Source: an uncultured beta proteobacterium
GTDB taxonomy: Bacteria; Pseudomonadota; Gammaproteobacteria; Burkholderiales; Nitrosomonadaceae
Length of the DNA: 64,000 nucleotides
Assembly (NCBI GenBank): GCA_900696615.1
Contig: CAADGS010000116.1
Span: 148-64,147, forward strand
Direction: 5' to 3'
In this document: piece by piece, positions 13,993 to 45,493 of the stretch
How positions within the stretch are numbered: position 1 is the first letter of the stretch
Layout: each line of letters starts with the position of its first letter
Notes under the pieces: generated by a model
Seen by the model: only the letters and a program-made list of their open reading frames with translations
What the model was told of the DNA's origin: nothing
Database searches by the model: none
Program-made: the position numbers and the translations under genes

Positions 13993-14216
13993 CTATTTCT
14001 GGCATTTTGTTAGAGTTTGTGGAGTTTACAGTTATCGATGCCCATGATTATTTAATATGTTTTAAATAATCAATAGGGATAAAAAAATCTCAGTCGGGAT
14101 TTGGATAATTCACTAAAAGCCTTATTTTAACCTATTGCTATCGTTTTTAAGGTTTAATTGATCCGACAATCAGTAAAGACACTTATTTATAACCGAAATT
14201 TATTTTGCAAAATCAG

Positions 14217-14963
14217 ATGGATAATTGGATCATTCCCGATTGGCCCGCACCCGCAAATGTAAAGGCTTTGATTACAACTCGTCATGGCGGTGTGAGTTCT
14301 GGCATGGCGGGCAGGTATGCGTCATTCAACTTGGCAATGCACGTCAATGATGATCAGTTGGATGTGGCATGCAATCGAACTCAGTTACGCCGTTATTTGC
14401 CATCTGAACCCAAATGGTTGCAACAGGTGCATGGTACGCTGCCGGTCTGGATCGATTGCATGGCAGATGGTGTGCCCCAAGGCGATGCTGCACTCTGTGG
14501 TACAAAAAGTCATGTGTGTGTTGTCATGGTTGCAGACTGTTTGCCGGTGTTTTTGTGCGACATGGCGGGTACTAAAGTGGGTGTCATTCATGCGGGGTGG
14601 CGTGGATTGGCCGGAGGAATTATTGAACGTTCGATTGCTGCGATGCAAGTGAATCCTGGTAGCTTAATGGCGTGGCTTGGTCCGGCTATTGGGCCGGATC
14701 ATTTTGAAGTAGGGAGAGATGTTTATGAAACATTCGTTCAGCAGCAAGCTTCCGCAGCGCAGGCATTTGTAAGCAAAAACCATGATCATGAGAAGAAATG
14801 GCTGGCGGACATTTTTATGCTTGCTCGCCAGCGCCTGGAGACCAACGGCATTACCCGAGTTTATGGGGGTGGAATTTGCACTTTCAGTGATTCGGTGCGT
14901 TTTTTTTCCTATCGCCGCGACGGTGAGACAGGGCGCATGGCTGCGTTGATTTGGCTGGAGTGA
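14217..14963 (+). CDS. pgeF: YfiH/PgeF family (laccase-domain) peptidoglycan editing factor / purine nucleoside phosphorylase
   Basis: VADCLPV, HAGWRGLAGGI and CT...FFSYRRD motifs. ATG 14217 preferred over TTG 14205. Confidence 0.85.
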   Translation: MDNWIIPDWPAPANVKALITTRHGGVSSGMAGRYASFNLAMHVNDDQLDVACNRTQLRRYLPSEPKWLQQVHGTLPVWIDCMADGVPQGDAALCGTKSHVCVVMVADCLPVFLCDMAGTKVGVIHAGWRGLAGGIIERSIAAMQVNPGSLMAWLGPAIGPDHFEVGRDVYETFVQQQASAAQAFVSKNHDHEKKWLADIFMLARQRLETNGITRVYGGGICTFSDSVRFFSYRRDGETGRMAALIWLE

Positions 14964-15035
14964 ATTGCTCTGCAATTTTTTAAAAGACCGGGTCACAACA
15001 GCGTATAATCCGGCCTTTGTTTTTCACTTAACTTT

Positions 15036-15833
15036 ATGTCAACGCTTACCTGGATTATTGCTGCGAGTTTGTTCGGGGGAATATTAAGTTTATTATTCGC
15101 GGCGATATTGACAATCAATGTCCGAATATCATGGCTGTCGATATTGATTTCTTATGCAATTGGCGCACTGTTGGGCGCCGCTTTTCTCAATACCCTGCCA
15201 GAAGCGCTCGAACTTTCTGACAACCCGATGCAGGTAACGGTTACCGTGCTATTTGGCATTTTGCTATTTTTTATTCTGGAAAAATTAGTATTGTGGCGTC
15301 ATTGTCACTTGGAAGACTGCGAAGTGCACGACCCTTCCCATGGTGCGGCCACACCTACCAGTCAGCCTATGCATGATCATGGCCGTAGCGGAACAATGGT
15401 GATTGTCGGCGATACTTTTCATAATTTCGTGGATGGTATTTTGATTGCTGCAGCGTTCATCGCGGATACGCAATTAGGCATTGTGACAGCGATTGCAATC
15501 ATTGCACATGAAATTCCACAAGAAGCAGGCGATTTTATTATTCTCCTTAATTCAGGCTACAGCCGCCGCATGGCCTTTTTGATAAATTTATTATCGGGCC
15601 TTGCAACGTTGGTGGGTGGTGTGCTTGCTTATTTTATGTTGCATAGTATGGATTTTCTGATACAGCCGCTATTGGCTTTTGCATCCGCTAGTATGATTTA
15701 TGTAGCGATGTCGGATTTAATCCCGGGTTTGCATAAAAGGCCAGAAATTAACGCGACAATACAGCAAGTTACTCTGATTTTATTGGGAATTTCTTCTATT
15801 TGGTTAATGGGTAATTTGTTTACTCATGGTTAA
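15036..15833 (+). CDS. zupT: ZIP-family divalent metal (zinc) transporter
   Basis: His-rich loop HCHLEDCEVHDPSHG...HDHG. HNFVDG and HEIPQEAGDF motifs. About 8 TM segments. Confidence 0.85.
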   Translation: MSTLTWIIAASLFGGILSLLFAAILTINVRISWLSILISYAIGALLGAAFLNTLPEALELSDNPMQVTVTVLFGILLFFILEKLVLWRHCHLEDCEVHDPSHGAATPTSQPMHDHGRSGTMVIVGDTFHNFVDGILIAAAFIADTQLGIVTAIAIIAHEIPQEAGDFIILLNSGYSRRMAFLINLLSGLATLVGGVLAYFMLHSMDFLIQPLLAFASASMIYVAMSDLIPGLHKRPEINATIQQVTLILLGISSIWLMGNLFTHG

Positions 15834-22104: not shown

Positions 22105-23463
22105 TTAGAATGGCAAGATAAAATCTAGGGAAAATAAAATTTGATCCTTGTTGCCGTCAAATGGCCGATAGGATGCTGCTTTGTAGGCATCTACCCTATC
22201 GTAACGGATATTTGGGCGAATATTGAGTTTCTTCAAATAATCCCACTTCAATTTGAATGTCTTGGCCATTTTCCAGTTTAAGCCTACTGTCAAGGCATAA
22301 TAATCTGCTGGCGTAATGGTGACACTGCTGAGCTTGCCCGCATAGCTGACAGCTGAGCCATTGACATCCTGGGTTGCCGCGGCTATCCGGAAAGGGGAAG
22401 GATTACGGAAACCATCTTCATCACGATACCACTCACCGCGAATACCTGCTGACAAATTATCCGTTAGATCATAGTACAAATGTGCTATGGCACTGAACCA
22501 CTCGGCATCTTTAATGGCATTCGTGTATTTTAAATTATTGAGCAAAACGCCACCGGCATGACCATATACTTGATGCAGAACAAGAAGCATTTTTGAAGTG
22601 ATTCGATGTTTCAATACTATGTTATAGAATCCCCAAGGCTCATTACTTCGTGCTGAGGTGTCGCCGTAAGTGCCGGAAATATGGAAAGATGTCGCGCGAT
22701 TGTCACTGGTCCAGGTAAAACCGGCGAGCACGTTCCAGTTTTCAAGCTGTTTGTCCCATCCAGCATCCCACCCACCTGTGGCGCTGCCGGTTATAGGGCC
22801 TGCCAACAGCAACCAATTTTTATTAACGGTATAGTTAGCGAGTAATCCTGTATGTGTAAAGGGTTCCCCGACGTTTAAGGTATAAGCGCGGGTGTAAAAG
22901 AAATTATCAGGTGCTGGCACGGTTTCGAAACCTGTCGGGGTATAGAAGTGTCCTGCTTTGATATTGAGGCCACCTCCTAAAGGTAAATACATTTCCAGAT
23001 AAGCTTGTGGCAGTGCAATGCCGTAGGTTTTCGAAGAAGCGCAGCATAAATCGAGATCCCAGTTACTTCTTTTTAAAGGCTCTCCAGAGTTAACATCATA
23101 AGTTGGAACGCCAAATGCTTGTGTAAATATCGAGTCTGTTCCAAACATAAAATCGAAGCGCCCTCCAAGATCCCATTTCCTGCCTTCCGAAGCAACCGGG
23201 CGCCGCATAAACAGATTTAATTGATTCAATTGAAACTGATTGGCTTGGTCGGCAAAGATGACTGGACCATTAAAACCACTAGTCTGGCTAGGATTGAAAG
23301 TTGCTCCGCCGTGAATCCAGCCGCCGAAATCCAATTTGCTGGTATTAAGAAATTTTCTAAAATTGTTAGCGTACGTGTCATCGGACGGTATTGCTATAAA
23401 AATAAGAATGCTGCCAGTTATGGCCGATAACGGCCATCCTGTGAATTTTAAAATGTAGTGCAT
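22105..23463 (-). CDS. Outer-membrane beta-barrel (porin-like), paralogue A
   Basis: Signal peptide. Alternating beta-strand pattern. C-terminal ...LFSLDFILPF ends in Phe. Long identical blocks shared with ORF 24380-25729. Confidence 0.75.
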   Translation of the reverse strand: MHYILKFTGWPLSAITGSILIFIAIPSDDTYANNFRKFLNTSKLDFGGWIHGGATFNPSQTSGFNGPVIFADQANQFQLNQLNLFMRRPVASEGRKWDLGGRFDFMFGTDSIFTQAFGVPTYDVNSGEPLKRSNWDLDLCCASSKTYGIALPQAYLEMYLPLGGGLNIKAGHFYTPTGFETVPAPDNFFYTRAYTLNVGEPFTHTGLLANYTVNKNWLLLAGPITGSATGGWDAGWDKQLENWNVLAGFTWTSDNRATSFHISGTYGDTSARSNEPWGFYNIVLKHRITSKMLLVLHQVYGHAGGVLLNNLKYTNAIKDAEWFSAIAHLYYDLTDNLSAGIRGEWYRDEDGFRNPSPFRIAAATQDVNGSAVSYAGKLSSVTITPADYYALTVGLNWKMAKTFKLKWDYLKKLNIRPNIRYDRVDAYKAASYRPFDGNKDQILFSLDFILPF

Positions 23464-23788: not shown

Positions 23789-23832
23789 TTAATGGTTTCT
23801 ATTAGTGAAAAACAATGGTTTCCCCAATATAC
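23789..23832 (+). promoter_or_regulatory. Conserved 44-bp upstream module, copy A (TGGTTTC half-sites plus -10-like TATAC)
   Basis: TTAATGGTTTCTATTAGTGAAAAACAATGGTTTCCCCAATATAC lies 60 nt upstream of ATG 23893. 33/44 positions are invariant across the three copies. Confidence 0.55.
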
Positions 23833-23892
23833 GGATGATGTCTATCAAATTAACATGGCACCATTCGATGAAATGTTTGGAGGATATTCATC

Positions 23893-24312
23893 ATGAGAAC
23901 ACTAAAATTATTAATTTCACTGTTTACGCTAGTTATGTTGGTGGCTTGTGCTCAAATGAATTCTTCGTTAGTTGCACCAGCCGGGATTGCAAAGAATGAT
24001 CATCATGCACTAATGAAGCATTATGAAGGTTTAGCGAAGCAAGCAAAAATTAAATTAGAAGAAAATAAAGCGATACTTGAAGCTTATGAGGCACGGCCAT
24101 ATTACTATGGTAGGCAAGGGTTGGATTTACAATCGCACACCTCAGCCAATATTCGTGAGCATACAAAAACTTTGAATCAAAGTCTTGAGTTTGCAAACTT
24201 ACATCGAAGATTAGCTATGGAACAACAAAAGAAGTTAAAACAAGCAGTTGATGAAAATGACCGTAGTTTAACCGTCGAGAACTCGGAGTATTCTGATAAC
24301 AAAGGGCTTTAG
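23893..24312 (+). CDS. Small exported helical protein of unknown family, lipoprotein variant (paralogue A)
   Basis: Lipobox LVMLVAC. Core NDHHALMKHYEGLAKQAKIKLEENKAILEAYEARPYYYGRQGLDLQSHTSANIRE is shared with 26113-26499 and 26810-27190. GGAGGA RBS. Confidence 0.7.
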   Translation: MRTLKLLISLFTLVMLVACAQMNSSLVAPAGIAKNDHHALMKHYEGLAKQAKIKLEENKAILEAYEARPYYYGRQGLDLQSHTSANIREHTKTLNQSLEFANLHRRLAMEQQKKLKQAVDENDRSLTVENSEYSDNKGL

Positions 24313-24331
24313 TGACAAGGCAGTAGGTAGA

Positions 24332-24364
24332 CTGACATTCACTGATTTTTTCAGTGGATGTCAG
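24332..24364. terminator. Hairpin between convergent genes (small protein A and porin B)
   Basis: CTGACATTCACTG-ATTTTTT-CAGTGGATGTCAG, a 13-bp stem with one G:T pair and a T-rich loop/flank. Confidence 0.5.
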
Positions 24365-24379
24365 ATTTATACTTTCTAA

Positions 24380-25729
24380 TCAAAAAGGCAATATAAAATC
24401 CAGGGAAAATAAAATTTGGTCCTTATTACCAGCAAATGGTCTATAAGCGGTAGACTGATAAGCATCTACTCTGTCATAGCGAATATTGGGACGAATGGTT
24501 AGTTTCTTGAGCGAATCCCATTGAAGCTTTAAAGTTTTGGCCGCTTTCCAATTTAAGCCTACAGTCGCTGCGTAATAATCTGCCGGAGTAATCGTAACGC
24601 TACTAAGATTGCCTGCATAACTGACCGGTACACCATTGACGATATTAGTGGCTGCTGCGATTCGGAAAGGTGATGGATTGCGAAAGCCATCTCTATCGCG
24701 GAACCATTCTCCGCGCACACCTACTGATACATTTTCCGTGAGATCGTAATATAAATGCGTAACGAAACCCATCCACTCAGTATCTTTAATAACATTTGTA
24801 TATTTCAGATTATTCAATAAAATACCATCAGCAAAACCGTGCACATGATGCAAAACTAACAGAGTTTTTGGATTAAATTTGTGTTGAAAAACTATGTTGT
24901 ACATAGCCCATGTTTCGTTGCTTCGGGTTGATATTTCTCCATAGGTACCGGTTATATTAAATGAAGTTGCATGATTGTCACTGGTCCAAGTGATTCCGCC
25001 AACGCCTCCCCAATTGCCTAGCTGCTTATCCCATCCTCCATCCCAGCCGCCGGTGGCACTTCCGGTAACGGCACTTCCGGAAACTGACCAATTCTTGTTA
25101 ATCACGTAATTGACTTGTAAACCGGTATGTGTGAATGGCTCGCCTGCATTAAATGAATATGCGCGTGTGTAGAAAAAATTATCCGGTGCCGGGATTGTTT
25201 CAAAACCTGTCGGAGAAAAAAAGTGTCCGAGCTTGATGTTTAGTCCGTTCTTTCCAACTGGAACGTGAGCTTCTAAGAAAGCTTGTGGCAATGCGATACC
25301 ATAAGTTCTTGAGGATGAGCAGCATATATTAAGATCCCAATTGTTTCTACTCAGTGCTTCACCTGAATTTACATCAAAAGTTGGTACGCCAAATGCTTGT
25401 GTAAAAATGGCATCAGTTCCAAACAGAAAATCAAAACGTCCACCAAAATCCCATTTATTAGTCTCTGAAATAACCGGGCGTTGCAGAAATAAATTAAGCT
25501 GATTTAACTGGAAACGATTAGCCTGATCGGCGAAAGCAACTGGGCCATTAAAGCCATTGGTTTGGCTCGGGTTAAAAGTTGCGCCGCCATGAATCCAGCC
25601 ACCGAATTCTAATCTGCTGTCTTTCGCAAAATTTTTTAGAGTGTTAGCCTGAAGCGTGCCGGATAATCCAGTAGTGAAAAAAAGCGAAGAGAAAATTGTT
25701 GCTAATAACAGCCATTTCGAGGAATTCAT
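24380..25729 (-). CDS. Outer-membrane beta-barrel (porin-like), paralogue B
   Basis: Signal peptide ...GTLQA/NT. Same conserved blocks (GGWIHGGATFNPSQT, DNFFYTRAY, GEPFTHTGL, KDQILFSLDFILPF) as paralogue A. Confidence 0.75.
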   Translation of the reverse strand: MNSSKWLLLATIFSSLFFTTGLSGTLQANTLKNFAKDSRLEFGGWIHGGATFNPSQTNGFNGPVAFADQANRFQLNQLNLFLQRPVISETNKWDFGGRFDFLFGTDAIFTQAFGVPTFDVNSGEALSRNNWDLNICCSSSRTYGIALPQAFLEAHVPVGKNGLNIKLGHFFSPTGFETIPAPDNFFYTRAYSFNAGEPFTHTGLQVNYVINKNWSVSGSAVTGSATGGWDGGWDKQLGNWGGVGGITWTSDNHATSFNITGTYGEISTRSNETWAMYNIVFQHKFNPKTLLVLHHVHGFADGILLNNLKYTNVIKDTEWMGFVTHLYYDLTENVSVGVRGEWFRDRDGFRNPSPFRIAAATNIVNGVPVSYAGNLSSVTITPADYYAATVGLNWKAAKTLKLQWDSLKKLTIRPNIRYDRVDAYQSTAYRPFAGNKDQILFSLDFILPF

Positions 25730-26053
25730 TTATCAATGACAAGTAAATTTGTTGAATATTAATAAGCCAATATAAGTAGCCGCGCTTGTTCAAAACATGG
25801 TCTACCTAGTAATTATACGATGCCATCACTCAACCATTTTTTCATTTGGATGTTATCTTTTGTACAACTTTTTCATAACCATTATTTTCCGTTTATTAGT
25901 ACTAGCTGGTTCGGTCTAGTTTCTTATTTGGTTTTGAGATGCGCTTCATCTCTATGATTAGCAGAACAAATATAATTGTTACAGCAGATAGAAAAGAGCA
26001 GATGTGATTGGTGGTGCAAAATAATAATTGGAAATTATTTTCTACTTATATAA

Positions 26054-26087
26054 ATAAAAAAACAACCACAGGCAAGCCTGTGGTTGT
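26054..26087 (-). terminator. Rho-independent terminator of small-protein gene B
   Basis: On the minus strand: ACAACCACAGG-CTTG-CCTGTGGTTGT followed by a T-run. Located 26 nt after the stop. Confidence 0.75.
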
Positions 26088-26112
26088 CCGCTTACTACCC
26101 TTAAGCGTTATC

Positions 26113-26499
26113 TTATTGTACTGTCGTATAATTATCTAAATTAAGCTTGGCTTTATTGATAGCATCACTATTTTGTTGATCCATCGCAATGCGATGATGT
26201 GTATCCGCGTTGCTTAAACTTTCAGCCAACAATTTTTCATATTCGCGGATATTTGCAGTTGTGTGTGATTTAACATCTTGGCCTTGACGTCCATAATAAT
26301 AGCTATGGTTTTCATATTCTTCTAATACTGCTTTATTTTCTTGTAATTTAGTTTCCGCTTCTTTGGCGAGAACTTCGTAGTGTTTTGCTAAAGCGACATG
26401 ATCATTATCATCAATCCCGTCTACTTCTGCTGCAAAGGCTAAAGAAACAGTTAGACTGAGTGCGAAAATTAACACTGCTAAAATTGCCGACTTTTTCAT
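26113..26499 (-). CDS. Small exported helical protein of unknown family (paralogue B)
   Basis: Signal peptide ...SLAFA/AE. Core DNDHVALAKHYEVLAKEAETKLQENKAVLEEYENHSYYYGRQGQDVKSHTTANIREYEK. Confidence 0.7.
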   Translation of the reverse strand: MKKSAILAVLIFALSLTVSLAFAAEVDGIDDNDHVALAKHYEVLAKEAETKLQENKAVLEEYENHSYYYGRQGQDVKSHTTANIREYEKLLAESLSNADTHHRIAMDQQNSDAINKAKLNLDNYTTVQ

Positions 26500-26556
26500 G
26501 ATGACTTTCCCCGGGTAATAAATTATGTCGACATAATAATTTGCCCAGCAAGTTTA

Positions 26557-26600
26557 GTATATTAGGGAAACCTTGGTTTTCTTCTAAGGGAAACCATTAG
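26557..26600 (-). promoter_or_regulatory. Conserved 44-bp upstream module, copy B
   Basis: Minus strand: CTAATGGTTTCCCTTAGAAGAAAACCAAGGTTTCCCTAATATAC, 57 nt upstream of ATG 26499. Confidence 0.55.
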
Positions 26601-26758
26601 ATGCTAAGCAATTGATTTTGCAACATGGAAAGAGTGTTCTCAAGGTCGAAAGTTTAGTGATTGACAATTCTTGCTCTGTATTGGGTGCAAGCATGCAAGG
26701 TAGCAGGCGTGTTTATTTGCTGGAAATAGCGGTAATCAGTGTTTCATTTAAGCTCAAA

Positions 26759-26790
26759 TAAAAAAAACCACAGGCCTGCCTGTGGTTTTT
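26759..26790 (-). terminator. Rho-independent terminator of small-protein gene C
   Basis: Minus strand: AAAACCACAGG-CAGG-CCTGTGGTTTT followed by a T-run. Near-identical to the terminator at 26054-26087. Confidence 0.75.
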
Positions 26791-26809
26791 CGCTTAATAT
26801 CTTAAAACC

Positions 26810-27190
26810 TTATCTTATTTCCGTGGAATCATCGAAATTTAACTTAGCTTTGCTGATTACGTTGCTGTTGTGTTGTTCCAGTGCGATTCGATGGTGCAAG
26901 TCAGCGTTGCTCAAGCTTTCAGCTAATTGTTTTTCATATTCGCGAATATTCGCAGTTGTATGGGATTTAAGATCTTGACCTTGGCGACCATAGTAGTAAC
27001 TATGATTCTCATATTCTTCCAGAACTGCTTTATTTTCTTGTAACTTGACTTCCGCTTCTTTGGCAAGAAGCTCGTAGTATTTCGCTAAAGCGGCATGATC
27101 GTTATCATCAATTCCGTCCACCGCAAACGCTGAAGATACTGGCAAGCTTAGTGCCAAGATGAGAGCTCCTAATAGTGTTGGTGTTTTCAT
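26810..27190 (-). CDS. Small exported helical protein of unknown family (paralogue C)
   Basis: Signal peptide ...SSAFA/VD. Core nearly identical to paralogue B. Confidence 0.7.
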   Translation of the reverse strand: MKTPTLLGALILALSLPVSSAFAVDGIDDNDHAALAKYYELLAKEAEVKLQENKAVLEEYENHSYYYGRQGQDLKSHTTANIREYEKQLAESLSNADLHHRIALEQHNSNVISKAKLNFDDSTEIR

Positions 27191-27247
27191 GGCAATTTCC
27201 TCAAGTGATGAATGAATGGTGCCATATTAATTAGGTAAACCCATTAA

Positions 27248-27291
27248 GTATATTGGGGAAACCCTGGTTTTTTTATAAGGGAATCCATTAG
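27248..27291 (-). promoter_or_regulatory. Conserved 44-bp upstream module, copy C
   Basis: Minus strand: CTAATGGATTCCCTTATAAAAAAACCAGGGTTTCCCCAATATAC, 57 nt upstream of ATG 27190. Confidence 0.55.
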
Positions 27292-42833: not shown

Positions 42834-44132
42834 TTAGCTAGGTTTGCGCAACAGTTTCTTACTGTCGTCAGATATAACGCTAATTGCTTTATTTCTCAAT
42901 CGCGCTTTGGTGAAGAATTTATAAAAGGTTGGTTCATTGGCTTTTGCAAGTAGTTTGAAAACTTCTTGTTGTGTCATACTGCGTTTTAATTGCAGCAGTA
43001 AAGCGGTGAGTCCGGAAACATGCGCTGTGGCCAGAGAATTGCCCGATACGAAGTCATATGCCCCGTCAGGTAACGTAGTTAGTATGGCCTCACCCGGTGC
43101 GGATAGGACAAGGGCGGGGTCTTCATGACCCGATTGCCCAAATTTTTCACTTATGCTGCGAACGCCGATAACCCCGAGTTGCTGAGCTGGGAAACCGGAT
43201 TTTTCATCATGACTGTCAGCTTGCGAAGCCACGATGATAATTCCCTGTTGAATGGCCTTTTCGATTAATCTAGCTAGAAGCGGGTCGTAAGGCCCGGTTA
43301 AACTTAAATTAAGAATGTCGACTTTCTTTTCAATTGCTGTATTAATGGCTAAAGCTAGTGTAAAGCTATTGCAGACTGCTTCCAGACTATTTGCTTTTAC
43401 ACTCCAGCATGCTTTCAATGAAACGACACGACTATCCGGTGCAATGCCTACGATACCATGCCCGTTATTTGGTTTTGCCGCGATTACACCGGCTATTGCA
43501 GTTCCGTGAATATCAACGGAATCAGTTGATTTCTGCATCACAAAATCTTTGCTCTGATGGATTTGCCCTTTTAAATCAGGGTGATTGATGTCTACCCCGG
43601 TATCGACAATTGCGATGCTAATATTTTTTCCTGTAGATTGGTTGTGTATTTCGGCCAAGTTGATTGAATGTATATTAGTTTGTAGCCGATAATAAGGGTC
43701 GTTATACGTATCGGCCATCACTTTGAAGGTATTCATCGCTTGAACATTACCGATTCGCTCGTCTTGTGACAATGCGGTCATGACATCGGTCAAAGATTCT
43801 TCTTCATCTACTAAATAAACAACACAATGCTCACCAATTTCTTTGATGGGCCATTGGGAAAGAATTTTTAGTTTGTAATCTGTTTCTATGCTGGACGCGA
43901 TTCTTTTACTCCAAGTAGAACTCCCGTAATCGCCTCGACGGCGATATATCTGGTTGGTCATTCCAATTGGAACTTGGTTGATGTGATTGTCAGTGTAGGT
44001 TACTAAAATAATACGTTCTGCGTGCCCGCTATCAAACACCTTGGGATCAACCGATAACTTTTCTTCCGCATGGACAGGAAAGGCAGCAAACATGATCAAT
44101 AGCAAAAAAAGATAAGAACAATAAGCTTTCAT
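42834..44132 (-). CDS. Exported subtilisin-like serine protease (peptidase S8) with N-terminal prodomain
   Basis: Catalytic D (IAIVDTGVD), H (DIHGTAIAGVIAA) and S (SGNSLATAHVSG). Start set to ATG 44132 (MKAYCSYLFLLLIMFAAFPVHA signal peptide). The longer ORF would overlap the anti-sigma gene. Confidence 0.8.
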   Translation of the reverse strand: MKAYCSYLFLLLIMFAAFPVHAEEKLSVDPKVFDSGHAERIILVTYTDNHINQVPIGMTNQIYRRRGDYGSSTWSKRIASSIETDYKLKILSQWPIKEIGEHCVVYLVDEEESLTDVMTALSQDERIGNVQAMNTFKVMADTYNDPYYRLQTNIHSINLAEIHNQSTGKNISIAIVDTGVDINHPDLKGQIHQSKDFVMQKSTDSVDIHGTAIAGVIAAKPNNGHGIVGIAPDSRVVSLKACWSVKANSLEAVCNSFTLALAINTAIEKKVDILNLSLTGPYDPLLARLIEKAIQQGIIIVASQADSHDEKSGFPAQQLGVIGVRSISEKFGQSGHEDPALVLSAPGEAILTTLPDGAYDFVSGNSLATAHVSGLTALLLQLKRSMTQQEVFKLLAKANEPTFYKFFTKARLRNKAISVISDDSKKLLRKPS

Positions 44133-44166
44133 TGAAATGTGAAATACTTGGCAGTTAAATATCATT

Positions 44167-44877
44167 TTAATCAACCGTGGATAATCCATGAGCCAGTTCT
44201 GCAAAAATTACAATTTTGTTGTTACGCAAGTTTGAAATAGCAGTCTTGACTTCCTGTAAACCGGTATGTCCATCACCAATCTGGACTTCATAAACGCCAT
44301 TTTGTAAGGGGCCTTTAACAATTTGACCTGATACGCTATGTAAAGCTGCTGATATATGCTTTGGATTCGCATGCTCGGAAAACACGATACGGATCATATT
44401 GTTTTTTTGTTCACCCTGAACAGGATTGGCAAGCGTTCTATATTCCCCTGTTAAATTAGATTGTTCGATCGATGAAGTTGATAAAAAAGGTAACGCTAAT
44501 AATACTAAGCTTGCAGCCAGAGCAGTAAATTTTATAGCGCTCAAAAATTGCGGGGCAAAAAGTTTGCCTGCGTTGTTTGAACGGGATGATTCGTCTTTCC
44601 GTGCAGTGGGAATAAGCGTATGTTGATTTTCTATCCGCTTCTTCAATTGAGCGAAAGAAACTTGCGATACTTGTTGCAGTAGATCGGTTTGCTGCATTTT
44701 TGCAAGCAGCAGTTTTTGCTGATTGAACTCAAGTCTGCAAGCGATACAATTCTTGAGATGTGCTTTCACAATATCCTGCTCGCTAGGATCTAAAGAGTGA
44801 TTGACATACCAAGGCAAAAGCTTCCAAATCTTTTGATGTTCGCTTTCGCTGCTTGTATTGATATTTGTGGATAACAT
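44167..44877 (-). CDS. Membrane-spanning ZAS-type anti-sigma factor
   Basis: H-x3-C-x2-C (HLKNCIAC) near the N-terminus. One TM segment (FTALAASLVLLALPFL). ~100-aa periplasmic domain. Starts 4 nt after the sigma stop. Confidence 0.75.
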   Translation of the reverse strand: MLSTNINTSSESEHQKIWKLLPWYVNHSLDPSEQDIVKAHLKNCIACRLEFNQQKLLLAKMQQTDLLQQVSQVSFAQLKKRIENQHTLIPTARKDESSRSNNAGKLFAPQFLSAIKFTALAASLVLLALPFLSTSSIEQSNLTGEYRTLANPVQGEQKNNMIRIVFSEHANPKHISAALHSVSGQIVKGPLQNGVYEVQIGDGHTGLQEVKTAISNLRNNKIVIFAELAHGLSTVD

Positions 44878-44881
44878 CTAA

Positions 44882-45493
44882 TTAACCTTTGCCATTATGT
44901 TCATGTAAAAATTGCGCCAAAATTTTTCGTGCGTGAAACATTCTAGTTTTAACAGTATTTTCGGGACATTGCATGATTTCCGAGATTTCATTGTAATGCA
45001 GTCCTTGGAAATATGTCATTTCTACAACAGCTCGCTGTTCGGTTGAAAGTTTGTCGAATGCAACTTGCAACCAATTGCTGACTTCCAGCTCCGATACCCA
45101 GTTAGTACTGCTACTTGGAAAATAATCCAGGTTGTCATCAAATTCATCTGAACGGTCTTCTCTTGTCGAATTTTGTTCGAAACTTTTGATTGATTTCAAG
45201 TATGCAATACCTAAAATCCATGTCGAAGGGCGGCATACTTGGTTATAAGTAGAGGCTTTTTCCCAAACAACAAACATCACGTCATTAATAATTTCCTCAA
45301 TACAGTCGTGATGCCTAACTATATGAAATATAAATTGATAGAGGCGATTATAATAGAGCTGATAAAGTTCTTCAAAAGCTTTCCCATCGCCTCCTGCAGT
45401 GCTTGCGATCAAGCTTCGTTCTTTTTCGTGTTGTTGTTGCGAGCTAAAAATTTTTCGCATTTTTAGCCCTGCCGATTCATGATTTAGTACCAT
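44882..45493 (-). CDS. ECF (group 4) RNA polymerase sigma factor
   Basis: Region 2 (YNRLYQFIF...DVMFVVWEK) and region 4 (LSTEQRAVVEMTYFQGLHYNEISEIMQCPENTVKTRMFHARK). Confidence 0.85.
   Translation of the reverse strand: MVLNHESAGLKMRKIFSSQQQHEKERSLIASTAGGDGKAFEELYQLYYNRLYQFIFHIVRHHDCIEEIINDVMFVVWEKASTYNQVCRPSTWILGIAYLKSIKSFEQNSTREDRSDEFDDNLDYFPSSSTNWVSELEVSNWLQVAFDKLSTEQRAVVEMTYFQGLHYNEISEIMQCPENTVKTRMFHARKILAQFLHEHNGKG

Follow-up and report, generated by a model that had tools for sequence, protein, structure and literature searches.

The subject of this report is a 44-bp sequence module that precedes three paralogous small-protein genes (genes A, B, and C) in a 64,000-nt stretch of contig CAADGS010000116.1, from an uncultured beta proteobacterium of the family Nitrosomonadaceae; the whole of this stretch is called the window below. 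As judged from sequence comparison, the module is a cis-regulatory element under purifying selection on the DNA itself, because it is conserved across two genera, Nitrosomonas and Nitrosospira, in front of proteins that are only 41–50% identical. We consider it fairly likely that the module forms the upstream half of an activator-dependent promoter of the sigma-70 type with tandem regulator sites, and it is probably switched on by an uncharacterised two-component regulator.

The window contains three copies of the module, with positions relative to the predicted transcription start where given:

23789..23832, plus strand: module copy A, TTAATGGTTTCTATTAGTGAAAAACAATGGTTTCCCCAATATAC, at about -74 to -31; matrix score 65
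26557..26600, minus strand: module copy B, CTAATGGTTTCCCTTAGAAGAAAACCAAGGTTTCCCTAATATAC, with its palindrome at 26584-26600
27248..27291, minus strand: module copy C, CTAATGGATTCCCTTATAAAAAAACCAGGGTTTCCCCAATATAC, with its palindrome at 27275-27291

The sequences and coordinates given for these copies in a preliminary description of this DNA were exact, as was its count of 33 of 44 positions invariant in all three. Copies B and C were identical to each other at 39/44 positions, and copy A matched each of them at 35/44. The 60 nt on the 5' side of the modules were identical at just 14–23 of 60 positions (21/60 for B versus C), which is no better than random. When the window was scanned with a degenerate 43-nt pattern allowing three or fewer mismatches, only three sites were found in 64 kb (expected number from 100 shuffles, 0.00), and the pattern TGGNTTC-N17-GGTTTC was confined to these three module sites. 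The fixed distance between module and start codon was borne out: the module ends 60 (A), 57 (B), and 57 (C) nt before the ATG, and mostly 57–61 nt before it among 179 unique relatives. A matrix scan of the window yielded only three matches, all of them the known copies, in agreement with the earlier statement that no module stands 5' of either barrel gene in the window.

Conservation was assessed in a comparison set of loci encoding homologues, 77 metagenome loci from a profile search for the small-protein family, and loci retrieved via the module itself (205 sources, 1.55 Mb). In the loci obtained via the protein family, a matrix built from six examples gave 105 matches, with an empty gap between scores of 18 and 29. 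The limits of the module were sharp: the information content of 88 unique sequences was about 0 before the module, 1.0–2.0 bits at most of positions 1–44, and dropped past position 44. In the 205 Nitrosomonas and Nitrosospira sources, we found 247 modules with scores far above background. Their link to the gene family was near-exclusive, with a family gene just downstream of 225 of the 247 modules and a module 5' of 220 of the 231 family genes that had enough upstream sequence. Besides the copies at L200 and L102 described below, the exceptions with sufficient sequence for a judgement were truncated family genes (L110, L160, and L189), a short membrane open reading frame (ORF; L161 and L197), single cases at L089, L103, and L125, and the module at L096, which has no evident downstream gene. 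A search of 185,579 genomes (one per species) with a pattern of about 40 bits, which demanded both halves of the module, returned at least 118 matching stretches. Among the matches listed, all came from Nitrosomonas, Nitrosospira, Nitrosomonadaceae, or unclassified betaproteobacterial genome bins, with 3–5 dispersed copies per genome.

These results bear directly on the possibility that the module has no regulatory function and is either upstream DNA that was duplicated together with its gene or a dispersed repeat. Co-duplication would fit genes B and C, which arose by recent tandem duplication (78% amino acid identity, with a shared terminator stem). However, the flanks of B and C are randomised (21/60) while their modules remain identical at 39/44 positions, the module persists in both genera beside diverged proteins (41–50% identity), and it keeps a fixed place and orientation before the start codon. 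Apart from L096, the module did not occur away from gene starts in the 1.55 Mb, and neither half-module was found alone elsewhere in the fetched sequence (shuffled controls, zero). A dispersed repeat of the REP or MITE kind was rejected because 225/247 copies stand before one gene family at a fixed distance and half-elements never stand alone. We regard an absence of function as effectively refuted. The earlier argument for selection rather than recent duplication therefore held, the adjoining 5' sequence being without information.

The module consists of a symmetric distal part and an oriented proximal part. The distal 17 bp form a 7-3-7 palindrome, CTAAKGG-N3-CCMTTAG, centred at about -66, and the proximal part reads AAAAC-MA-KRGTTTCCCCAATATAC. 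In copy A, the two parts are as follows:

23789..23805, plus strand: distal palindrome TTAATGG TTT CTATTAG, centre at about -66, a putative high-affinity dimer site
23815..23833, plus strand: proximal oriented element AATGGTTTCCCCAATATACG, with its GGTTTCC core at about -43 and TATACG at -35 to -30

Complementarity between the arms was seen in 130–157 of 163 unique modules (80–96%) at pairs 2-16, 3-15, 4-14, 6-12, and 7-11; the palindrome was perfect in 36, and at least six of its seven pairs were kept in 92. The central triplet was TTT in 136 and AAA in 17 of these modules, and because it flips in this manner, the distal part is better read as a symmetric dimer site than as one arm of a direct repeat. 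The proximal element is asymmetric and fixed in orientation (GTTTCCCCAATATAC); its centre was flipped in 0/163 modules, and positions 30–44 were conserved at 84–100%. An A-tract lies at about -55 to -51. The core A-K-R-G-TTT-CC recurs 23 bp downstream of the distal core with the same K,R degeneracy at positions 5/6 and 28/29, which would be natural if a single protein recognised the two. The direct repeat of TGGTTT(C) seen in the preliminary description was thus partly upheld: the cores are truly repeated 23 bp apart, but the distal one is itself the core of the 17-bp palindrome. The inverted AAACCA reported between them is exact in copies B and C and not in copy A; its family-wide form is AAAC(C/A)A. 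Five loci (L043, L054, L055, L101, and L198; e.g. L055:3181-3248) carry an extra palindrome, CTAAGGGAAACTATTAG, 23–24 bp further 5'. The three phased sites that this one lineage has before the -35 are suggestive of a modular arrangement of phased sites.

The core promoter very probably lies further downstream than had been proposed. The preliminary description took TATAC(T/G) at the end of the module as the -10 element. This assignment was not supported: the sixth position of TATACN is A in 51%, T in 27%, and G in 18% of sequences, and a -10-like hexamer was found downstream. TAnnAT follows the module in 174/179 unique upstream sequences, at an offset of 19 in 135 and of 20 in 39 (18–19 bp past the module), and the spacer between TATACN and TAnnAT is 17–18 bp. 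The T at -12, A at -11, A at -8, and T at -7 were fixed by the search pattern; the commonest forms of the hexamer were TAAGAT, TAGGAT, TATTAT, and TAATAT. In sequences anchored on the hexamer (n=176), position -6 was G in 80%, position -1 was C in 80% or T in 19%, and position +1 was A in 61% or G in 18%, with a pyrimidine at -1 in 99% and a purine at +1 in 79%. By its sequence, the combination of TAnnAT with G(-6) and Y(-1)R(+1) is a -10/start-site signature of the sigma-70 type. TATACN is very probably not the -10 but placed at -35 to -30, and transcription would start at a CAT about 31 nt past the end of the module. The predicted elements in the window are as follows:

23851..23856, plus strand: predicted -10 of copy A, TAACAT
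23863, plus strand: predicted start of copy A, the A of CAT, 7 nt past the hexamer and 30 nt before the ATG
26533..26538, minus strand: predicted -10 of copy B, TATTAT, with its predicted start at 26526
27224..27229, minus strand: predicted -10 of copy C, TAATAT, with its predicted start at 27217

The literature yielded no start-site data for the Nitrosomonadaceae. With the predicted start downstream rather than upstream of the module, the earlier view of the module as part of a promoter rather than of a transcript leader appears sound. The remark that a -35 was missing 17 bp upstream of TATAC became moot once TATACN itself was assigned to -35 to -30. Compared with the -35 consensus TTGACA, TATACN lies at the right distance from the -10 (17–18 bp) but has only 3–4 of 6 matches and lacks the TG, and a simple consensus promoter scan reported no promoter at TATACN/TAnnAT. 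Such a poor -35 is consistent with activator dependence. A TTGA in the spacer (about 23841-23844 in copy A) sits too near the -10 to act as a -35.

The alternative placement keeps TATAC(N) as the -10, with a start about 7 nt past the module, the palindrome as a class II activator site, and TAnnATG...CAT as a leader-RNA element. AATATAC is almost invariant, and the centre of the palindrome would then fall at about -42/-43, a classic class II position like that of the lux box. ATG-N4/5-CAT also forms a short inverted repeat, which is perfect over 16 bp in copy B. We nevertheless consider this placement unlikely, since the sixth position of TATACN is T in so few sequences (27%), whereas the downstream hexamer has the exact sigma-70 signature, and the G(-6) and Y(-1)R(+1) that go with it are correctly spaced. 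A leader RNA or hairpin formed by ATG...CAT was rejected because the interior of the repeat shows no covariation and a loop of 2–4 nt is too small for a hairpin; a search of the module and leader against Rfam 15 gave nothing at E <= 1. In copy B, the perfect 16-bp palindrome ATTATGTCGACATAAT (26523-26538, minus strand) spans the predicted -10 to +3. Family-wide, just ATG-N4/5-CAT is kept from this inverted repeat, and these letters are accounted for by the last bases of the -10 and the dinucleotide at the start. An upstream ORF beginning at ATGGCACC was also discarded, as it is not conserved (M-S-T-stop in copy B) and lies 5' of the predicted start.

The same hexamer weighs on the suggestion, made in the preliminary description, of an alternative sigma factor. 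In such a reading, an extracytoplasmic function (ECF) factor, sigma-32, or sigma-54 would use the proximal GTTTCCCCAATATAC as a -35 or as an extended element. In favour of it are the fixed orientation and unusual invariance of the proximal element, a loose likeness of CCCCAAT to the sigma-32 element CCCCATNT, and the presence of an ECF sigma gene in the window at 44882-45493. On the other side, a conserved TAnnAT is typical of sigma-70 or sigma-S rather than ECF factors or sigma-54, and no sigma gene recurs near modules; a role for an alternative sigma factor is thus very improbable. The suggestion was not sustained for any individual factor, the pattern being neither GG-N10-GC nor CCCCATNT nor an ECF-type -10. 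Sigma-54 was rejected because GG-N10-GC does not occur among the conserved columns, and the TGGCAC found at the predicted start of copies A and C is absent from copy B. Sigma-32 and ECF factors were rejected because the -10 is TAnnAT, not CCCCATNT or a CGTC-type element, and because a CTTGAAA/TTGAAA box is absent at the required spacing. A sigma-28 reading was ruled out by the spacing and the TAnnAT -10.

Module copies were also seen before genes outside the small-protein family. One Nitrosomonas genome bin has a module, somewhat diverged, 56 nt 5' of a BBP2 barrel gene (L200:2360-2403, plus strand), and this module is followed by an intact-looking -10 (TAAGGT) and a CAT start; therefore, the barrel can be a direct member of the regulon. 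In Nitrosospira sp. 56-18, a module with a lower score (L102:6660-6703, minus strand) stands 139 nt 5' of a gene for a small metal-binding protein (SMBP; PF16785, E = 2.5e-15); its -10 is out of register, and this copy may be decayed. A copper or metal link through SmbP was set aside as weak, given the -10 spacing at L102, the distance of 139 nt to the gene, and the lack of a PF16785 match in the small-protein family.

The candidate for the activator emerged from gene order. In distant family loci, the small-lipoprotein gene stands directly behind genes for a 960-aa HisKA_3 kinase and a NarL/FixJ-type response regulator (Response_reg and GerE domains). The regulator gene is 5' of the module in 56/198 module-bearing loci of both genera, with its stop codon 17–187 nt away in almost all of them and 322 nt from the module in two. 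Unbiased clustering of ORFs within 4 kb of modules placed the small-protein family at 180 loci, the regulator at 55, BBP2 at 54, the kinase at 48, lgt at 32, and ilvD at 23. The sole other recurrent regulator within this distance was a lineage-restricted PhoBR pair (13 loci). Activator dependence, as raised in the preliminary description, is thus plausible, with a poor -35 and this response regulator as the recurrent regulatory neighbour. PhoB itself was rejected as the regulator although phoBR adjoin the gene in N. ureae, because no Pho box is present and the synteny is limited to those 13 loci. Where several module loci of an assembly had been fetched, in most cases just a single one of them adjoined the two-component system (e.g. 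in OW818677.1, N. supralitoralis, and Nitrosospira 56-18), as one would expect of a regulator that controls a few scattered targets.

The helix-turn-helix domain of the regulator is invariant at 42/62 columns in the two genera together, a degree of constraint in keeping with that of the site. Regulator orthologues with at least 80% identity bore Nitrosomonas names only, besides two unclassified genome bins. Its best solved relative is NarL (1a04, E = 1e-28), and it scores below every NCBIfam equivalog cut-off; by sequence, it is a generic member of the NarL family. The kinase (L006:1326-4208) has a periplasmic region of about 250 aa and three tandem cytoplasmic repeats of about 135 aa with conserved cysteines (repeat pattern RLKEITCLYEIR...VCG.L.VFYPEDKPFLVLEEQ...WLERK), and its sensor region had no Pfam match outside HisKA_3 and HATPase.

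Several observations weigh against this assignment and against the promoter model as a whole. Synteny with the two-component system covers just about 28% of module loci, and no response regulator or kinase was found in the 64-kb window (ten regulator-sized ORFs, Pfam scan). In one Nitrosomonas lineage (L205-L214, e.g. L205:1-3657), the two-component system has no adjacent module. The half-site CTAAKGG/CCMTTAG is unlike the NarL half-site TACYYMT and does not match any testable characterised consensus of the NarL family. The near-invariance of the proximal 15 nt exceeds that of a usual secondary activator site, so something else may also read this element. The spacer holds a moderately conserved TTGA at -22 to -19 (T 66%, T 77%, G 66%, A 59%), for which the model does not account. 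Finally, the fetched loci are a biased sample, having been retrieved via the protein family or via the module itself. Judged by its half-site, the module is no binding site for NarL itself and could at best serve a member of the NarL family that has yet to be characterised. The genome from which the window derives would carry the two-component system elsewhere, to judge by its relatives; in GRE_AOB_3, for example, the system lies at L171 and a barrel cluster resembling that of the window at L186. In the L205-L214 lineage, a DUF3330 gene and an insertion sequence (IS) fragment stand behind the system, in the place of a module and a lipoprotein gene.

The incomplete synteny also leaves room for a different binder, either a LysR-type tetramer, with its recognition site at about -65 and its activation site at about -35, or a repressor. 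In the textbook layout of LysR-type promoters, a strong palindrome at about -65/-66 is accompanied by a weaker site abutting the -35, and the geometry of the module equals this layout; about 72% of module loci are without an adjacent two-component system. However, no LysR-type gene, other transcription factor gene, or sigma gene recurred within 4 kb of modules. For a repressor, a palindrome at -66 is poorly placed for simple repression, and the weak -35 favours activation. We judge another binder to be improbable.

Under the two-component reading, the following sequence of events is proposed. The NarL/FixJ-type response regulator, with its GerE helix-turn-helix, would be phosphorylated by the 960-aa HisKA_3 kinase, and a dimer of the regulator would bind the palindrome at -66. 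The proximal site (-43) beside the weak -35 would then be occupied by another dimer, or by the first one jointly with RNA polymerase, and polymerase would be recruited. The core promoter to which it is drawn would consist of TATACN at -35 to -30, a spacer of 17–18 bp, TA(A/G)nAT at -12 to -7, and G at -6; transcription would begin with the A of the conserved CAT, with a predicted leader of about 27–30 nt. The outcome would be co-induction of 3–5 dispersed genes per genome for small helical-hairpin periplasmic proteins or lipoproteins, and in some genomes of the adjacent BBP2 porin gene as well. In a bolder variant, the invariant proximal element may reflect a helix-turn-helix of the regulator that resembles sigma region 4 and takes over recognition of the -35. 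That the binding protein is this regulator and that it activates rather than represses are what we infer from the gene order and promoter layout; the inducing signal may be metal, envelope stress, pH, or nitrite. The chances are about even that these parts make up an ammonia-oxidiser regulon in which an orphan two-component system controls 3–5 dispersed helical-hairpin genes whose products work with BBP2 barrels in a nitrifier-specific pathway for envelope or nutrient stress. Such a regulon would so far be confined to betaproteobacterial ammonia oxidisers, and we came across no account of a pathway of this kind.

The genes and terminator-like hairpins around the three modules are as follows:

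23893..24312, plus strand: gene A, encoding a 139-aa lipoprotein member of the family with the lipobox LVAC
26113..26499, minus strand: gene B, encoding a 128-aa secreted family member
26810..27190, minus strand: gene C, encoding a 126-aa secreted family member
24332..24364, plus strand: terminator-like hairpin 3' of gene A
26060..26089, minus strand: terminator-like hairpin 3' of gene B
26762..26791, minus strand: terminator-like hairpin 3' of gene C
24380..25729, minus strand: BBP2 (PF07642) outer-membrane barrel gene, a syntenic partner of small-protein genes, without its own module here
22105..23463, minus strand: second BBP2 barrel gene, divergent from gene A, without its own module

Genes A, B, and C are paralogues (B-C 78% and A-B about 50% identical at the amino acid level), interleaved with the two BBP2 barrel genes and flanked by ppsA, lgt, and ilvD (Pfam labels taken from a syntenic locus). 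Going by the names of homologues, the window belongs to Nitrosomonas. Each small gene has its own terminator and would therefore have its own transcript, driven by its own module; gene B in particular would be largely monocistronic because of the hairpin behind it. The terminators of genes B and C (26060-26089 and 26762-26791, minus strand) have the common stem AACCACAGGC/GCCTGTGGTT, and the duplication unit therefore spanned the region from module to terminator, only the sequence between units having diverged. The small-protein family had no match in Pfam, NCBIfam, or PDB sequences, and none to PF16785. An AlphaFold model of the small protein (pLDDT 81.6) has the form of a long two-helix hairpin joined by an invariant HSYYYGRQGQD turn, and a Foldseek search with this model returned no significant structural neighbour (best E = 0.5). 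An envelope role for these proteins is suggested by their conserved His and Tyr residues and by the association of their genes with BBP2 barrel genes.

Elsewhere in the window, a cluster at 42834-45493 (minus strand) comprises the ECF sigma factor gene (44882-45493), a 236-aa ORF without a Pfam match that is a possible anti-sigma (44167-44877), and a subtilase S8 gene (42834-44204); as far as tested, this cluster has no relation to the module. Two neighbouring genes at 14205-15833 (plus strand) encode a laccase-like Cu-oxidase_4 protein and a zinc transporter of the ZIP type; no module lies close by.

Neither the motif nor the two-component system nor the small-protein family was described in the literature searched. 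A promoter with an operator is an ordinary kind of object, and the mechanism is not new in kind. As far as we found, the module is an undescribed and unusually well conserved instance of this kind, and it delimits a regulon peculiar to ammonia oxidisers. For ammonia-oxidising bacteria, knowledge of transcriptional control is scant, and hardly any operators or regulons have been defined. The module offers a sequence-defined regulon, with one motif, 3–5 targets per genome, and one candidate two-component system across Nitrosomonas and Nitrosospira, and it yields an exact prediction of promoter anatomy. It also draws attention to the small envelope proteins, an abundant family without annotation, which would form a system under common control together with the porins that partner them. 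The signal that induces this system could matter for the physiology of nitrifiers in soils and wastewater.

Among the closest parallels are promoters controlled by NarL-family regulators. NarL/NarP promoters of E. coli (nir, nrf, ogt, and yeaR) carry 7-2-7 inverted heptamers with the half-site TACYYMT. The module resembles them in its NarL/FixJ-family candidate regulator, its inverted repeat of two 7-bp arms, its tandem arrangement of a distal and a -35-proximal site, and its putative sigma-70-type core with a weak -35. It differs from them in its arm (CTAAKGG), in its spacer of 3 bp rather than 2, in the sensor of the linked kinase (three repeats without a Pfam match), and in its unrelated targets. 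In the BvgA promoters of Bordetella (fha and ptx), a high-affinity inverted repeat lies upstream and lower-affinity sites reach the -35. The module likewise combines a betaproteobacterial candidate regulator of the NarL family with a distal inverted repeat, sites extending to the -35, and T-rich/CC half-sites (TTTCC...), whereas the consensus and positions differ, and cooperative spreading at the module is only hinted at by the one three-site lineage.

The layout of a strong palindrome at about -65 and a weaker site overlapping the -35 is shared with LysR-type promoters, although no LysR-type gene is linked to modules and the palindrome is not the usual T-N11-A box. With regard to its targets, the module recalls CpxAR-CpxP, BaeSR-Spy, and ZraSR-ZraP, in which two-component systems are paired with small periplasmic helical proteins. 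By analogy with these pairs, the two-component system adjoins, and presumably induces, the gene for a small secreted all-helical protein, and dispersed targets share an operator. The Pfam and Foldseek searches with the small proteins described here showed no sequence similarity or significant structural similarity to CpxP, Spy, or ZraP, and the candidate regulator is of the NarL type rather than the OmpR or NtrC type.

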